Shown here piece after piece: positions 3,872 through 31,142 of a DNA stretch of 37,371 nt (its first letter is position 1; each line of letters starts with the position of its first letter). The stretch comes from Gemmatimonadota bacterium (GTDB lineage: Bacteria > Gemmatimonadota > Gemmatimonadetes > JACCXV01 > JAHWKZ01), in assembly GCA_039591175.1 (NCBI GenBank), contig JBDHED010000002.1:1-37371 (forward strand). The letters run 5' to 3'. A program made the position numbers and the translations under genes. Under the pieces are notes generated by a model. The model was not told the DNA's origin, ran no database searches, and was given only the letters and a program-made list of their open reading frames with translations.

Positions 3872-3962
3872 TCCGCTGCCGAGCGGGCACTTCGCATCTA
3901 TTATTGAGTTTGGTTAATCCGTGCTCGCGATCTCGAATCATCCAGCGAACTGGAGCGCCACC

Positions 3963-5519
3963 ATGGATATCAAGGGTCCGATCTCCCGTCGTGCGCTGCT
4001 CGGTTACGGGCTCGCATCATCGACCGCGGCCCTCATCCCCGATTTGCGGTTAAATGAGCTGTGGGCGACTGCAACGCAGCCCGCTCGAGCCCCACAATCC
4101 ACACCGACGATGGGCGATGAACCGTGGATAATGTCGGCATCCGATTTGGCGGCTGCGATCCGCGATCGCCGGATCACCAGCCGAGCCGTTGTCGAATCCC
4201 ATCTGGAGCGGATCGCGGAGGTCAATTCGGCGGTAAACGCAATTACGGTGGTGCTCGAGGAGCCGGCGATGCGAGCTGCGGAAGAAGCGGACCGGGCCGT
4301 CGACTTTGGGGGCGAGATCGGTCCGTTGCACGGTGTTCCGTTCACGGTCAAGGAGAATATCGATGTTGCGGGGTCGGCGACGACGATGGGTGTTGTAGGA
4401 CTCGAAGGAGAAATCCCACCGGTTGACGCGCCGCTTGTGGCCCAGCTCAAGGCCGCCGGCGCGATCCCGCTGGCCCGTACGAACATGCCCGACTTCGCGT
4501 TGCGATGGCATACCAAGAGCTCGTTGCGTGGTGCAACGGCAAACCCTTGGGACCGCACACGGACCCCTGGCGGATCGAGCGGAGGTGACGCCGTCGCTCT
4601 GGCGTTGGGGATGACGCCGCTGGGTGTAGGAAACGACTACGGCGGCTCGCTTCGTTACCCAGCTCAATGTTGTGGGGTGTGCTCGATTCGGCCCACGCGG
4701 GGGCGTGTTCCCGACAGGTCGGCGACGGCGCCGGCGGAGTTTCCGATCACCATCCAGCTGTTTGCGACCAACGGACCGATGGCGCGTCACGTTCGCGATC
4801 TACGGATCACTCTTGGCGCGATGAGCGGGCCAGATCCTCGCGACCCTTGGTGGGTCCCGGCCCCGTCGGAGGGCCCGTCCGTGGGTCGTCCGATTAAGGT
4901 GGCGGTGACGATGGATCCGAGCGGGCAGGGAATCGATCCGGACGTCGCCGATGGTGTCGCAAAGGCGGCCGACGCGTTGTCGAACGCCGGCTATGCGGTC
5001 GAAGAGGTCGATTTGCCAGCGGTCGATGAGGCGGCTGCTCTCTGGACACGTGTGGTGGCAGCCGAGCTGCGAACCGACTTCGTACCCGCGGTGCAGGAAC
5101 TCCTGGCCCGGGACTCGTATAGGGTGCTCAACGATCTTTTTTCGGTGGTGCCCGAGCTAACCCTTCGCGGCTACATGCGCGCGCTGGCGGATCGAAATGG
5201 TATCGCTCGCCAGTGGACGCAGTTTGCGCAGAAGTATCCGTTGGTCCTGGGTCCCGTTTCTACGCAGCAACCGTTCGCGGTCGGTGATGACCTGCGGGGA
5301 ACGGACGCGGCTCTGTGGATACTTCGCTCGATGCGACTTGTCGTGACCGCGAACTTGCTCGGGCTTCCGGCAGCCGCCGTGCCCGTGGGGCTCGCCAACG
5401 GGCTTCCACAGGCCGTTCAGGTGATCGGTCCACTGTATCGGGAAGACTTGTGCTTGGATGCCGCCGAGGCGATCGAGAACGAGCTCGGTGTCCTGACGCC
5501 GATCGACCCGCGAAAGTAG
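3963..5519 (+). CDS. Amidase-signature (AS) family amidase with a Tat signal peptide
   Basis: Twin-arginine motif SRRALLG. AS motifs PFTVKENIDVAG and GGSSGG. I chose ATG 3963 because it has GGAG 7 nt upstream. GTG 3921 (the track start) has no RBS. Confidence 0.85.
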   Translation: MDIKGPISRRALLGYGLASSTAALIPDLRLNELWATATQPARAPQSTPTMGDEPWIMSASDLAAAIRDRRITSRAVVESHLERIAEVNSAVNAITVVLEEPAMRAAEEADRAVDFGGEIGPLHGVPFTVKENIDVAGSATTMGVVGLEGEIPPVDAPLVAQLKAAGAIPLARTNMPDFALRWHTKSSLRGATANPWDRTRTPGGSSGGDAVALALGMTPLGVGNDYGGSLRYPAQCCGVCSIRPTRGRVPDRSATAPAEFPITIQLFATNGPMARHVRDLRITLGAMSGPDPRDPWWVPAPSEGPSVGRPIKVAVTMDPSGQGIDPDVADGVAKAADALSNAGYAVEEVDLPAVDEAAALWTRVVAAELRTDFVPAVQELLARDSYRVLNDLFSVVPELTLRGYMRALADRNGIARQWTQFAQKYPLVLGPVSTQQPFAVGDDLRGTDAALWILRSMRLVVTANLLGLPAAAVPVGLANGLPQAVQVIGPLYREDLCLDAAEAIENELGVLTPIDPRK

Positions 5520-5528
5520 AGAGCAAAC

Positions 5529-6125
5529 ATGGCCTGGATTCACCAAGTTCCGATCGACGACGCTACCGGGCGCCTTCGGGAGCATTTCGATGCCGCTATC
5601 CGTCGCGCTGGTCGGGTGTGGAATATCGTTCACATCATGAGCCTAAACCCGCGTGTCCTGGAATCGAGCATGCGGTTGTACATCGACATAATGCGTGGCC
5701 GGTCGCCGCTGACGCGCGCACAGCGAGAACTCTTGGCGACGGTTGTGTCCTCCGAGCTCGATTGTCACTATTGAACGCAAGCCCATGCCAACGATCTCCG
5801 GGAAGAGATCGCGGGTCAATTCACGACGGGAGACGAGGCCGATGCGTACGTGCACGCGGTAGTGAGGGATTGGCGCTCGGCTCCGTTGTCAGAGGTCGAT
5901 CGCGAGCTTTGTGCGTTCGCAACCAGGCTGACCCACCACCAACACGATATGGCGCCGGCCGACCTAGATGCGCTGCGCGAGCGTGGACTCGCCGATGATG
6001 CGATACATGACGCCGTTCAGGTGATCGGTTACTTCAACTACATCAGCCGCATCGCCGACTCGTTGGGCGTCGAGGCTGAGACGTTCATTCCCACGTGGGG
6101 TGGCGCGCCAAAGGAAACGGGATGA
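5529..6125 (+). CDS. AhpD/carboxymuconolactone decarboxylase (CMD) family peroxidase-related protein; putative selenoprotein (in-frame UGA at 5772-5774)
   Basis: Track ORFs 5529..5774 and 5850..6125 are in the same frame and are separated only by TGA. Read-through gives ..SSELDCHY[U]TQAHANDLREE.., which is the family CxxCxxxH redox motif with UGA at the second Cys position. A hairpin follows 17 nt downstream of the UGA. Confidence 0.6.
5787..5816 (+). promoter_or_regulatory. Candidate bacterial SECIS stem-loop
   Basis: Upper stem CGATCTC (5792-5798) pairs with GAGATCG (5805-5811). Apical loop CGGGAA. A 2x2 internal loop separates it from a 3-bp lower stem (5787-5789 with 5814-5816). The apical loop starts 24 nt after the UGA, which is within the usual bacterial SECIS spacing. 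Confidence 0.5.
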
Positions 6126-6466
6126 ATCGACAGGCGTTGACGATTTGCACGGTTCTACTAGCGATTGATTGTACCGACGGCGTCAATCAGCCTAGCCACG
6201 AGATTCAGGTGCGTCACCAGCGAGACATGGTTTACGAGCTCGATGTGATTCGGAAGGCGGACCGGGCCGTCGTGCAGATCATCGAGGTCCGCAACGGCAT
6301 CGATCCGTCGGAACTGGGCGCTACCGAGTTGGTCGATATCGATGGGGACGGTCACCCGGATCTTCGAGTGCTAGGCGGAGAGGCACGTGGCGAAGCTTGG
6401 CACAAGGTCTGGGTTTACGATCCTGAAGAGGAAGGGTTTGTCTGGTCCCACACCACGGAGCAGTGA
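6122..6466 (+). CDS. Small hypothetical protein with a possible N-terminal export or anchor segment
   Basis: The ATG overlaps the upstream stop (ATGA). N-terminus MNRQALTICTVLLAIDC. A DIDGDGHPD motif resembles an FG-GAP or Ca-binding loop. I recognise no family. Confidence 0.55.
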   Translation: MNRQALTICTVLLAIDCTDGVNQPSHEIQVRHQRDMVYELDVIRKADRAVVQIIEVRNGIDPSELGATELVDIDGDGHPDLRVLGGEARGEAWHKVWVYDPEEEGFVWSHTTEQ

Positions 6467-27751: not shown

Positions 27752-28354
27752 CTACTCGTCTCGATCCCAGCTCTGCTTGACTTTCACCCGAGAGCTCTCG
27801 TCGATCTCCGCCGCATCGACTTTCTGGTACGTCATCGTGATCGTCTCCATCGGGCGCTCGCCGGTGGCGTCGATACTGTAGCTCGTGATCATGACGTTCT
27901 TGAGCTTGTACTTCATGTACGTCGCCTGGCCACCGGGGCGCTCCGGCGCCTCGAGCTCGACGCTCGGGAAATGCGTCCCGTTGGCACACGCCAACATTAT
28001 TTTCGGAGATGAGGCGTCGTATTCCTTCGTCATAGTCAGATCTTCGACGATGACGTCGCCACGGCGACGCGCAGCGTTTTGTCCGGCGGTTGGTTTGTGC
28101 GCTCCCCAGTCGATCGATAGAACGTCGATCCACTTGTCGTGGTTCTCATCCAAAGATTCGCCATCGATATCCGGGAGCTTGATGTACATATCGACGGCCG
28201 CGGTCGGTGGCGTGGGGACGCGACCCGTAACGACCGGTCGGTCGGGGTCACCCTGGGCTTCGGCGCTGGGGACGAATGCGATCCACAGGGCGAGACCAAA
28301 CCCGACGACGCAAACAAAACGATGGAGCATGCTGGCTGGATGCTGAACGAACAT
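27752..28354 (-). CDS. Hcp (T6SS tube protein, PF05638-like) fold protein with an N-terminal Sec signal peptide
   Basis: The mature region aligns by eye with Hcp1: VDMYIKLPDIDGES.D..H..WIDVLS.DWG, DLTMTKEYDASSPKIMLAC.NG.H and YMKYKLKNVMITSYS. It is preceded by MFVQHPASMLHRFVCVVGFGLALWIAFVPSAEA|QG. RBS GAGGAA. Confidence 0.75.
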   Translation of the reverse strand: MFVQHPASMLHRFVCVVGFGLALWIAFVPSAEAQGDPDRPVVTGRVPTPPTAAVDMYIKLPDIDGESLDENHDKWIDVLSIDWGAHKPTAGQNAARRRGDVIVEDLTMTKEYDASSPKIMLACANGTHFPSVELEAPERPGGQATYMKYKLKNVMITSYSIDATGERPMETITMTYQKVDAAEIDESSRVKVKQSWDRDE

Positions 28355-28538
28355 GGTTTCCTCTCTTGAAGCGTTGCTTTCTTGTTGACCCTGAGTTGAT
28401 GTACTCGCGATACACCGACCACTTGTCTGAGTGCCCTTTGCGGCTTCGAGGAGCCGCCTGTATCTTGGGGCAAGTCCCCATACAGCAACCACATAGCAGG
28501 GCGGGTGATCCCGCCCCTTCGTATTTTCGACGGTACCC

Positions 28539-31142
28539 ATGACCAGTCACGAACTGCGCCAGCGATTCCTCGATTTCTTCGTCGCCAACGGCCACGAGCT
28601 GGTAGCCTCGGCGCCGCTTGTGCCCGAGGACGATCCGACGCTGTTGTTTGTGAACGCGGGCATGGTGCCGTTCAAGGATGTCTTTACCGGCCAGCGCGTG
28701 GTCGATTACGCGCGCGCAGTGTCGTCACAGAAGTGCCTCCGCGTATCGGGCAAGCACAACGACTTCGAAAACGTGGGGTATACGCCCCGCCACCATACGT
28801 TCTTTGAGATGCTCGGCAATTTTTCGTTTGGCAACTACTTCAAGCGCGAGGCGATCGCACTTGCGTGGGAGTTCCTCACCGAAGATCTCAAACTGCCGGC
28901 GGATCGACTTTGGGCCAGCGTCCACGAGAGCGACGATGAGGCGGCTGATCTCTGGCCCGAAGTCACCGGAATCCCCGCGGAGCGGGTCCTTCGGATGGGG
29001 GACAAGGACAACTTCTGGGCAATGGGCGACACGGGCCCGTGTGGGCCTTGTTCGGAGATCTTCTGGGACTTTGGTCCCGAGCACGGTACGGGAACGCCAG
29101 CTGACAACGAGGACCGGTACCTCGAGATCTGGAACCTGGTGTTTATGCAGTTCGAGAGCCGGGCCGATGGCACGCGGATCGATCTGCCGCGGCCGTCCGT
29201 GGACACGGGGATGGGGTTGGAACGGCTCGCGGCCGTCGTTCAAGATGTGTACTCGAACTACGACAGCGATCTGTTCACACCCTTGCTCGCAACGATCGCA
29301 GCAAAGACCGATCAGACGTACGAGCCCGACACCGATGTTGGTGTCTCTTTTCGGGTTCTCGCCGATCACGGCCGAGCGGCGGCGTTCCTGATTGGGGACG
29401 GCGTCTATCCGACCAACGAGGGCCGCGGTTACGTGCTGAGGCGGATCATCCGCCGAGCCGTGCGACACTACTGGATGCTCGACGTTCATCGGCCGGTGCT
29501 CCACGAGGTCATCCCAACGGTTGTTGCGGAGATGGGCGTGTCGTTCCCGGAGCTGTCAACTCACGAACAACAGATCCGCGTGATCCTCGAAGCCGAGGAA
29601 GAGCGTTTTCTCCAAACGATCGATCAGGGGATGGAGATTCTGGACAAGGTTCTGGCGACCACGCCGGCAGGTACCGACGTTCCTGGCGACGACGTCTTTA
29701 CTCTTTATGACACCTACGGTTTTCCACCCGACCTGACCGAACTGATCGCCAGAGAGCGCGGTCATGGTGTCGATGACGAAGGCTATCAGAAGCGTATGAT
29801 GGAGCAGCGCGAGAGGGCTCGCAAAGCGAGCGGTTTTGAAACGGCAGCCGTCGACGCTGTAGGTCGGAAGCTAGAGGCGGACTCGAAATTCGTCGGCTAC
29901 GATCAGCTCAAGGTCGACACGACCATCGAACACGTTGAACCGGACGGTGACCGTCTCCGGTTGGTTCTGCGCGAGAACCCATTCTACGCGACTGGTGGTG
30001 GGCAGGTGGCCGATACCGGCGTGATCGATGGGGAAGGGTTTGGGCTCGCTGTCTTTGACGTCGAGCGGCACGGGGAGGTGTTCGTGCCCGTGGCCGAGGT
30101 TGTCGAGGGTGATACCGGCAAGGTCGTCGTTGGTGCGCCGGTACGCGCGATGGTGGACGAAGCACAGCGTCGTGACACCGAGCGCCATCACACGGTGACG
30201 CACGTGATTCACGCGATCCTACGCGATCGACTCGGGGAGCACGTGCGACAGGCAGGCTCACTGGTCGAGCCCGATCGCATGCGATTTGATTTCTCACACC
30301 CCAAGGCACTCACGCCGCAGGAGATCGACATGATCGAGGACGAGGCCAACGCATGGGTCTTATCCGATCTGCCGGTCGATAAGGAGATCATGCCGTTTGA
30401 CGACGCCAAGTCACGTGGCGCGATCGCACTGTTTGGCGAGAAGTATGGCGAGCGAGTGCGAGTTGTTGCGATCGGTGACGATGAGTCGGTCGAGCTGTGC
30501 GGGGGTTGTCATGTCGCACGAACGGGTGAGATCGGAGCGGTCAAGATCGTGTCCGAGTCGAGCGTCGCCGGTGGCGTCCGGCGTCTCGAGGTGGTGACCG
30601 GTTTTCGTGCACTCAAGGAGTTCAGGCAGGCCGAACGGGTACTTGCCGAAGCTGCCCAACGGCTCAAGGTGTCCCAAAATGAGTTGCCGACCCGGATCGA
30701 TCGGCTGCTTGAAGAGAAGCGCGAGATCGAAAAGCGTTTCGAGGCTGCTCGACGCCAGGCGATGCAGGGTGGGGCGAGCGGACTCGTCCAGCGGTCGACG
30801 ACTGTGAATGACTTCGAGGTGGTGACGCTCCGGGCCGAACCCGTCTCGATGGACGATTTGCGCACGATCGGTGACACCGTTCGTGAACAACTCACCTCGG
30901 GGGTCGGGGTTATTGGCGCCTCGCTGGAGGGCAAGGCCAACCTGCTGACGGTCGTCACCGACGATCTGATCGAAGCCGGCACGCTCGACGCGCCCCGCGT
31001 GATTGGCGAACTGGCGCCGCTGATTGGCGGCCGTGGCGGAGGCAAGAAACACATGGCGCAGGCCGGTGGAAAGGACATCGAGAAGATCGATGCGGTGCTC
31101 GAGCGGGCGCCCGAGATCATCGCTTCGCTGGTTCGCGGTTGA
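28539..31142 (+). CDS. alaS: Alanine--tRNA ligase
   Basis: Full-length class II AlaRS: FVNAGM, RVSGKHNDFENVG, FFEMLGNFSFG, editing-domain HTVTH..CGG.H, and C-terminal DHHA1-like GG(R)GGGK. Confidence 0.97.
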   Translation: MTSHELRQRFLDFFVANGHELVASAPLVPEDDPTLLFVNAGMVPFKDVFTGQRVVDYARAVSSQKCLRVSGKHNDFENVGYTPRHHTFFEMLGNFSFGNYFKREAIALAWEFLTEDLKLPADRLWASVHESDDEAADLWPEVTGIPAERVLRMGDKDNFWAMGDTGPCGPCSEIFWDFGPEHGTGTPADNEDRYLEIWNLVFMQFESRADGTRIDLPRPSVDTGMGLERLAAVVQDVYSNYDSDLFTPLLATIAAKTDQTYEPDTDVGVSFRVLADHGRAAAFLIGDGVYPTNEGRGYVLRRIIRRAVRHYWMLDVHRPVLHEVIPTVVAEMGVSFPELSTHEQQIRVILEAEEERFLQTIDQGMEILDKVLATTPAGTDVPGDDVFTLYDTYGFPPDLTELIARERGHGVDDEGYQKRMMEQRERARKASGFETAAVDAVGRKLEADSKFVGYDQLKVDTTIEHVEPDGDRLRLVLRENPFYATGGGQVADTGVIDGEGFGLAVFDVERHGEVFVPVAEVVEGDTGKVVVGAPVRAMVDEAQRRDTERHHTVTHVIHAILRDRLGEHVRQAGSLVEPDRMRFDFSHPKALTPQEIDMIEDEANAWVLSDLPVDKEIMPFDDAKSRGAIALFGEKYGERVRVVAIGDDESVELCGGCHVARTGEIGAVKIVSESSVAGGVRRLEVVTGFRALKEFRQAERVLAEAAQRLKVSQNELPTRIDRLLEEKREIEKRFEAARRQAMQGGASGLVQRSTTVNDFEVVTLRAEPVSMDDLRTIGDTVREQLTSGVGVIGASLEGKANLLTVVTDDLIEAGTLDAPRVIGELAPLIGGRGGGKKHMAQAGGKDIEKIDAVLERAPEIIASLVRG

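Follow-up and report, generated by a model that had tools for sequence, protein, structure and literature searches.

The AhpD-like reading frame and its in-frame UGA

In a 37,371-nucleotide (nt) stretch of DNA from a Gemmatimonadota bacterium (contig JBDHED010000002.1 of assembly GCA_039591175.1), referred to here as the window, a reading frame for a protein of the AhpD/CMD type is interrupted by an in-frame TGA and followed by a second, same-frame piece. The frame starts at an ATG at 5529, and by open reading frame (ORF) analysis the TGA at 5772-5774 is the sole stop within 5529-6122. A mechanical ORF list reports the two pieces separately, as 5529-5774 (81 amino acids, aa) and 5850-6125 (91 aa). 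An earlier note on this DNA had joined them by read-through into one 198-codon protein, and the ORF analysis agrees. Judging from sequence comparison, it is highly likely that 5529-6125 is a single gene encoding an AhpD-like (TIGR01926 / COG2128) thiol-selenol oxidoreductase in which codon 82, a UGA, is decoded as selenocysteine (Sec). The features of the locus are collected in Table 1. The source contig (Ga0452215_005930, sample 3300041080) is present in JGI and NCBI and measures 50,751 bp; the first letter of the window is its position 6163.

Table 1. Coordinates, in window numbering, of the predicted selenoprotein gene, its elements and the adjoining genes.
Feature	Position	Strand	Details
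Predicted selenoprotein gene, AhpD-like / peroxidase-related family TIGR01926	5529..6125	+	198 codons + terminal TGA
Glu67	5727..5729	+	Invariant column of family alignment A2, 12 residues upstream of C79
Active-site motif C79-H80-Y81-U82-T83-Q84-A85-H86	5763..5786	+	From alignment A2 and 80 related loci
Predicted Sec-UGA codon, residue 82	5772..5774	+	Second-Cys position of CxxCxxxH
Core hairpin of the predicted Sec insertion sequence	5792..5811	+	Stem 5792-5798 / 5805-5811 (7 bp), apical loop 5799-5804; within codons N88-A95
True terminator of the selenoprotein gene, TGA	6123..6125	+	End of the read-through ORF
Amidase gene	3921..5519	+	Pfam Amidase, 2.8e-98; not part of the Sec system
114-aa ORF	6122..6466	+	ATG overlaps the terminal TGA (ATGA); called gene in the public record

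The 198-residue read-through product contains ...ELDCHY-U-TQAHANDLREEI..., and around the interrupted codon it reads ...RELLATVVSSELD-C-H-Y-U-T-Q-A-H-ANDLREEI.... For profile searches, the stop was replaced by Cys. The substituted protein matches the Pfam CMD domain (3.5e-11), and with the NCBIfam model TIGR01926 ("peroxidase-related enzyme"; cutoff 81.8) it reaches 118.3 bits, its residues 3-182 covering profile positions 2-174 of 178. Homologues of known structure, including 6k40 (E = 1.4e-22), 2oyo and 2pfx, align across the UGA over residues 12-181. Two further AhpD-like structures, 3c1l and 2prr, are also matched by sequence, and it is by sequence homology to these five entries that the all-helical AhpD/CMD fold is predicted for the protein.

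These alignments also locate the interruption within the active site. In 6k40, C-V-Y-C-A-V-S-H lies opposite C-H-Y-U-T-Q-A-H, with the second Cys opposite the TGA; the stop thus falls on the second Cys of the CxxCxxxH motif. The same replacement had been proposed from the window alone, and it is borne out both by 6k40 and by distant Cys-containing homologues, in which Cys falls in the UGA column when they are aligned with the read-through protein. In the family alignment A2, C79 is nearly invariant, while Y81, H86 and E67 are invariant, and U82 is likewise a conserved column of the CxxC(U)xxxH redox motif.

Conservation of the UGA among relatives

When one genome per GTDB species was scanned, 590 loci related to the gene came up, and the best 80 of these 590 were analysed. 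Their products are 57-93% identical to the window protein and collinear with it over residues 1-191 of 198. Going by the titles of their records, the 80 loci comprise 33 from Gemmatimonadota, 32 from Chloroflexota (mostly Anaerolineae), four each from Acidobacteriota, Actinomycetota and Planctomycetota, and three others, namely one KSB1-type genome and two that are unclassified. The closest five, L001-L005, are metagenome-assembled genomes of Gemmatimonadota.

All 80 of the best loci carry TGA at exactly the Sec codon, across at least five phyla, and TAA or TAG never occurs there; in the 81-sequence alignment, the count of TGA is 81/81. The surrounding residues are equally constant, with C-x-Y upstream and x-x-[AS]-H downstream of the TGA in 80/80 loci. 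The earlier note had held that a sense codon other than Cys or Sec in close relatives would speak against a selenoprotein, and what the best 80 loci hold at this position is TGA throughout.

More distant homologues carry a Cys codon (TGC or TGT) in the same column. These Cys-type homologues are L085, L093, L094 and L095, and among distant protein hits the motif reads C-A-Y-C in P0014 (TGC), C-E-Y-C in P0034 (TGT), C-D-Y-C in P0037 (TGC) and T-R-Y-C in P0012 (TGC), the last being the product of L095.

The pattern bears directly on the possibility that the frame is a pseudogene, or a pair of independent small genes of 81 and 91 aa, left by a nonsense mutation. Gene callers treat it in just this way, the public record listing an 81-aa and a 58-aa product and other records holding abutting fragments. 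Against this stand the recurrence of the same TGA, to the exclusion of TAA and TAG, in 80/80 loci of at least five phyla; the strong conservation of the protein on either side of it; and the placement of the stop exactly on the catalytic Cys column, with a conserved RNA hairpin next to it. The conservation data in effect refute a pseudogene or a pair of small genes, a reading whose probability we regard as negligible.

The hairpin downstream of the UGA

The second line of support for a Sec codon is an RNA hairpin within the coding sequence, which corresponds to a bacterial Sec insertion sequence (SECIS) element. Its stem is formed by CGAUCUC (5792-5798) pairing with GAGAUCG (5805-5811) around the loop CGGGAA (5799-5804). 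A gap of 17 nt (5775-5791) separates the UGA from the stem, and the apical loop begins 24 nt past the UGA. The hairpin's position, its 7-bp upper stem, its loop sequence and both distances had all been given correctly in the earlier note. In the numbering used below, the U of the UGA is nt 1, and the helix forms between nt 21-27 and nt 34-40.

Over the 48 nt that follow the UGA, the 81 sequences align without gaps. Within this alignment 98.2% of stem cells are paired; shifting the 3ʹ arm by one to three columns lowers the figure to 24-46%. The stem has 7 bp in the window and 6 bp in some relatives. Folded alone, the hairpin has a free energy of -8.4 kcal/mol, and a value of -7.5 kcal/mol or lower is reached in 77/81 sequences. 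The loop conforms to C-G-[G/U]-G-N-N in every sequence (81/81); its second position is always G (81/81), and its third is divided between G (44 sequences) and U (37), with A and C absent.

Published descriptions of the bacterial SECIS specify an apical loop of 3-9 nt and an upper stem of 4-16 bp (PMC13188914, Fig. 2A), a G at loop position 1 or 2 that is mostly followed by G or U (PMC13188914), and a UGA-to-loop spacing of 16-37 nt with a free energy of -7.5 kcal/mol or less (PMC13188914). The window hairpin agrees with this description at every point, with its 6-nt loop, 7-bp stem, G29 followed by G or U at nt 30, spacing of 24 nt and free energy of -8.4 kcal/mol, in keeping with the earlier note's view that its geometry is that of a bacterial SECIS.

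Selection at the level of RNA is also visible in codon usage. The Leu codon in the helix is CTC in 81/81 sequences, although CTC accounts for 35% of Leu codons in the rest of these genes; the Glu codon in the helix is GAG in 81/81, compared with 65% elsewhere. The loop Arg is encoded by CGG or CGT only (41% elsewhere), and CGC, otherwise the commonest Arg codon, is never used. The adjoining Ala and Thr codons vary freely. Furthermore, pair 24-37, which joins the wobble base of an Asp codon to the first base of an Ile or Val codon, shows three states, C-G (61 sequences), U-A (14) and U-G (three), and no mismatches; its U-A state is found in Gemmatimonadota, Actinomycetota and several lines of Chloroflexota.

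Among the four Cys-type homologues, a stable in-register hairpin is present in none (3-6 of the 7 positions pair), and the peptide D-L-R-x-E-[VI], which the hairpin region encodes, is missing from three of the four and from 6k40. The constraint accordingly goes with the UGA rather than with the fold of the protein.

These comparisons weigh on the proposal that the hairpin merely mirrors a conserved D-L-R-x-E-[VI] peptide and has no function as RNA. In its favor, the stem lies entirely within coding sequence, and four of its seven pairs never vary. Peptide conservation would not freeze synonymous third positions (CTC and GAG in 81/81, Arg as CGG or CGU only) beside freely varying Ala and Thr neighbours, nor would it make an Asp wobble base covary with the first base of Ile or Val without a single mismatch; moreover, the motif is missing where Cys replaces Sec in three of four homologues and in 6k40, and a degraded version is retained in L095. 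A purely peptide-level explanation is accordingly very improbable, and a SECIS that acts as RNA is the reading we retain. The earlier note had also allowed that the hairpin might prove unconserved among orthologues that carry the UGA; the pairing (98.2%), the covariation and the frozen synonymous sites all point the other way.

The supported part of the hairpin is its 20-nt core alone. The earlier note had described a bipartite structure, of which the upper stem and loop are conserved; no such conservation is seen for the lower stem and the internal loop. The 3-bp lower stem (nt 16-18 with 43-45) occurs in the minimum-energy fold of the window, and its pairs form in 42%, 6% and 35% of sequences, with no covariation; it was rejected as a SECIS part. 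A 5ʹ mini-hairpin (nt 9-11 with 16-18) that appears in many minimum-energy folds is also neither conserved nor covarying and was set aside. A snoRNA match in a permissive Rfam scan of 5700-5900 was dismissed as chance (E = 5.7, opposite strand).

Variants at the Sec column

A few homologues outside the best 80 loci depart from TGA at the Sec column. In P0010, present in two assemblies (L083:5001-5582 and L084:638-1219), the codon is AGA (Arg) and the motif C-H-Y-R; in P0004, from one contig (L082:367-963), it is GGA (Gly) and the motif C-F-Y-G. Both keep the SECIS hairpin, and both codons are one base from TGA. Sec may have been lost recently in these sequences, a change that would probably leave the enzyme inactive; the alternative is sequencing error.

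A different state is seen in L095:501-1070 (P0012), in which Thr replaces the first Cys (T-R-Y-C) and the hairpin region encodes H-D-Y-R-D-E-V. Its hairpin is degraded but in register, with 6/7 pairs and one A-A mismatch, and looks like a fossil SECIS left after conversion of Sec to Cys. The AhpD-like gene of this locus starts 4 nt downstream of the gene for a lipoyl-bearing 2-oxoacid dehydrogenase E2 protein.

It is conceivable, at slightly less than even confidence, that the Sec form of the AhpD-like protein is a single clade that was transferred horizontally into at least five phyla, Gemmatimonadota included, with its SECIS essentially frozen. If so, the RNA element, and not the enzyme fold, would dictate the peptide H-D-L-R-x-E-[VI], and the AGA (Arg), GGA (Gly) and decaying-hairpin Cys variants would be snapshots of Sec loss. 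The identity of the window gene is the same with or without such a history.

Decoding of the UGA

A UGA could in principle be read as a standard amino acid, either as Trp or Gly under an alternative code or as Cys or Trp by near-cognate read-through. Many "full-length" family entries among hits P0001-P0042 do have W at the Sec column, and variants with GGA (Gly) and AGA (Arg) codons occur. For the one W call checked at the DNA level, P0001 (a short contig translated with table 4), the W is a TGA, and the same call overruns its own true TGA stop into a spurious C-terminal tail. The stops of the 35 called genes on the source contig are TAG in 21, TGA in 11 and TAA in three, and the selenoprotein gene itself is among those that end in TGA, so there is no genome-wide reassignment of UGA. 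The standard genetic code is the rule in the host phyla. Moreover, the Sec column holds Cys in homologues, not Trp or Gly, and in loop sequence and spacing the hairpin matches a SelB-binding element (PMC13188914). We consider a standard amino acid at this codon very unlikely, and Sec remains the favored assignment.

Several observations count against a Sec-decoding gene at this locus, or fail to add to the case for one. The window hairpin is no more stable than shuffled sequence: a 64-nt segment folds at -16.3 kcal/mol and its shuffled versions at -15.1 kcal/mol on average (z = -0.48; 69/200 shuffles equal or better), which is unremarkable at 61% G+C. Stability alone is not significant and is thus not used as evidence, the support coming from comparison. 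Clear double changes are confined to one stem pair, and the remaining pairs are invariant and uninformative on pairing either way. No Rfam model matches, whether in the window at gathering thresholds or in a permissive scan of 5700-5900. Searches of the window, the remainder of the 50.7-kb contig and the 80 loci turned up no selA, selB, selD or tRNA-Sec gene, but the DNA covered is so tiny a share of a genome that the result is uninformative. Finally, no cluster of flanking ORFs from the 80 loci recurs in more than seven of them, and these flanks include no conserved peroxiredoxin, thioredoxin or reductase.

The search for Sec machinery took several forms. ARAGORN found tRNA-Arg only, and no tRNA-Sec, in the window and the 80 loci; a Pfam search of 25 window ORFs returned no sel gene; and neither a scan for SelA, SelB and SelD signature motifs across 622 kb of related loci nor inspection of 20-kb neighbourhoods on two long orthologue-bearing contigs for sel genes gave a hit. 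A scan of the window for in-frame TGA codons with coding-like composition on both sides gave no other credible selenoprotein gene.

Proposed mechanism

By the established bacterial pathway, SelB-GTP carrying Sec-tRNA(Sec) would bind the hairpin at 5792-5811 while the UGA occupies the A site, and delivery of the Sec-tRNA(Sec) to the ribosome would outcompete release factor 2 at the UGA at 5772-5774. The terminal UGA at 6123-6125 has no such element, and translation would stop there.

In the protein, homology suggests that Sec82 stands where the AhpD CxxCxxxH motif has its nucleophilic second Cys. Sec82 would attack an oxidised substrate (a peroxide, or a peroxiredoxin-type partner in its oxidised form), and Cys79 would resolve the resulting selenenyl species to an Se-S bond, with His86 and Glu67 as a putative proton relay. 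A thiol donor would then recycle the Se-S bond. In the AhpD of Mycobacterium tuberculosis, the spacing between Glu118 and Cys130 is the same as that between Glu67 and C79, and the second Cys is the nucleophile. It is from the pathway and from such homology that we infer selenium insertion, the catalytic roles of these residues and the nature of the physiological substrate. Direct observations are the UGA and its conservation, its alignment with Cys, the conserved hairpin and the family assignment.

With the gene recognised, a Gemmatimonadota-like genome gains one selenoprotein, and the gene in turn implies that Sec machinery is present in the organism and that its lineage probably decodes Sec.

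Comparison with known AhpD-like proteins

AhpD-like selenoproteins with a CxxU motif were first described in 2005, when 27 Sargasso Sea sequences, placed in COG2128, were recognised as a new family (PMC1088965). The later GOS survey counted 299 sequences and 902 Cys homologues for "AhpD-like 1" (COG2128, CxxU), which ranked fourth in abundance among its selenoprotein families (PMC2398784). An "AhpD-like protein, TIGR01926, CxxU, one Sec" appears in a 2026 review (PMC13188914), and BSepDB has a page for the AhpD-like family (PMC13326102). The window gene shares with this family the TIGR01926 model, the CxxU motif and a downstream bacterial SECIS; since it passes the TIGR01926 cutoff and carries the same motif, it is a member. 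There is no substantive difference between them, the window copy being distinguished by its Gemmatimonadota-like genome and its place after an amidase gene. The earlier note's statement that the family is not new thus agrees with previous reports (PMC1088965, PMC2398784), and orthologues are very probably in large-scale catalogues already. The family, the CxxU motif and the SECIS having been catalogued, the gene opens no new question. Gemmatimonadota is not named in the selenoprotein surveys compared here, and a literature search pairing the phylum with "selenoprotein" or "selenocysteine" returned nothing explicit on Sec decoding in it.

Among proteins of known structure, the closest in kind are the AhpD-like proteins of the Deinococcus radiodurans type (6k40, 2oyo, 2pfx and 3c1l), which share with the window protein the motif C-x-Y-C-x-x-x-H and an upstream R-E-L-L-A-x-V-V-S. 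Unlike the window protein, they have Cys and not Sec at the second position and do not contain the SECIS-encoding peptide H-D-L-R-x-E-[VI]. We take 6k40 to be DR1765. According to the passage of PMC8945050 that cites Zhao et al. 2020, a D. radiodurans mutant lacking a related AhpD-like protein is sensitive to H2O2, and CxxC mutants complement it poorly.

The AhpD of M. tuberculosis, a lipoamide-using reductase of AhpC, is more distant. It has in common with the window protein the CxxCxxxH motif and a Glu 12 residues before the first Cys, but the model TIGR00778 (ahpD_dom) scores the window protein at 24.3, below its cutoff of 27.8. Coupling to ahpC of the M. tuberculosis type is likewise not apparent, as the window has no adjacent ahpC or peroxiredoxin gene and none is conserved in the 80 loci. 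The E2 neighbour of L095 recalls the lipoamide-dependent reduction of the M. tuberculosis enzyme in this single case.

Another AhpD-related domain with CxxU is found in NF041238 (AhpD_rel_CFYUT), the Sargasso Sea "hypothetical protein 1". Membership of the window protein in this family was rejected, as it scores 76.1 bits against a cutoff of 175 and matches only the C-terminal half of the model, positions 151-337 of 357.

At the RNA level, the SECIS of Escherichia coli fdhF offers a comparison. The two share a hairpin just past the UGA within the coding sequence, a loop that starts with G followed by G or U, and a spacing within 16-37 nt (PMC13188914). The window hairpin is unrelated to that of fdhF in sequence and has no evident bulged U, and SelB binding to it is predicted.

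Annotation in public records

The value of the gene lies chiefly in annotation: public records split it, and many database proteins of its family carry a spurious Trp at the Sec position or stop at C-x-Y. The earlier note had anticipated that it would be mis-annotated, and the public gene calls of the source contig do divide it, into products of 81 and 58 aa. At least two other records likewise show abutting fragments. Among hits P0001-P0042, database entries include N-terminal fragments that stop at C-x-Y and C-terminal fragments that begin just past the Sec site.

Genomic neighbourhood

The earlier note had made the selenoprotein gene the second gene of a tightly coupled operon. The coupling itself stands, the stop of the amidase gene lying 9 nt upstream of the ATG at 5529; among the 80 loci, an amidase occupies this upstream position only in L001-L005. 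The 114-aa ORF that follows is clearly present, at 79-90% identity, in L001, L002 and L005 only; L004 shows no more than a weak, partial match, and L003 lacks it. The operon therefore characterises the window's clade rather than the family and offers no hint of a redox partner; a Pfam search found no peroxiredoxin gene in the window.

The 114-aa ORF has no Pfam match, and its N-terminus, MNRQALTICTVLLAIDC, resembles a signal or lipoprotein peptide. In L041, L062 and L079, which are more distant Gemmatimonadota, an amidase gene whose product is 26-31% identical to that of the window lies about 0.5-1.7 kb downstream on the opposite strand, in convergent orientation. This second, different adjacency to an amidase may be coincidence.

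Elsewhere, the window encodes LptF/LptG, which marks its source as a Gemmatimonadota-like diderm. Other type VI secretion genes are not visible among the window ORFs scanned, and a lone Hcp-domain gene (27752-28540, minus strand; Pfam T6SS_HCP, 1.7e-35) lies between an adenine glycosylase gene and alaS.

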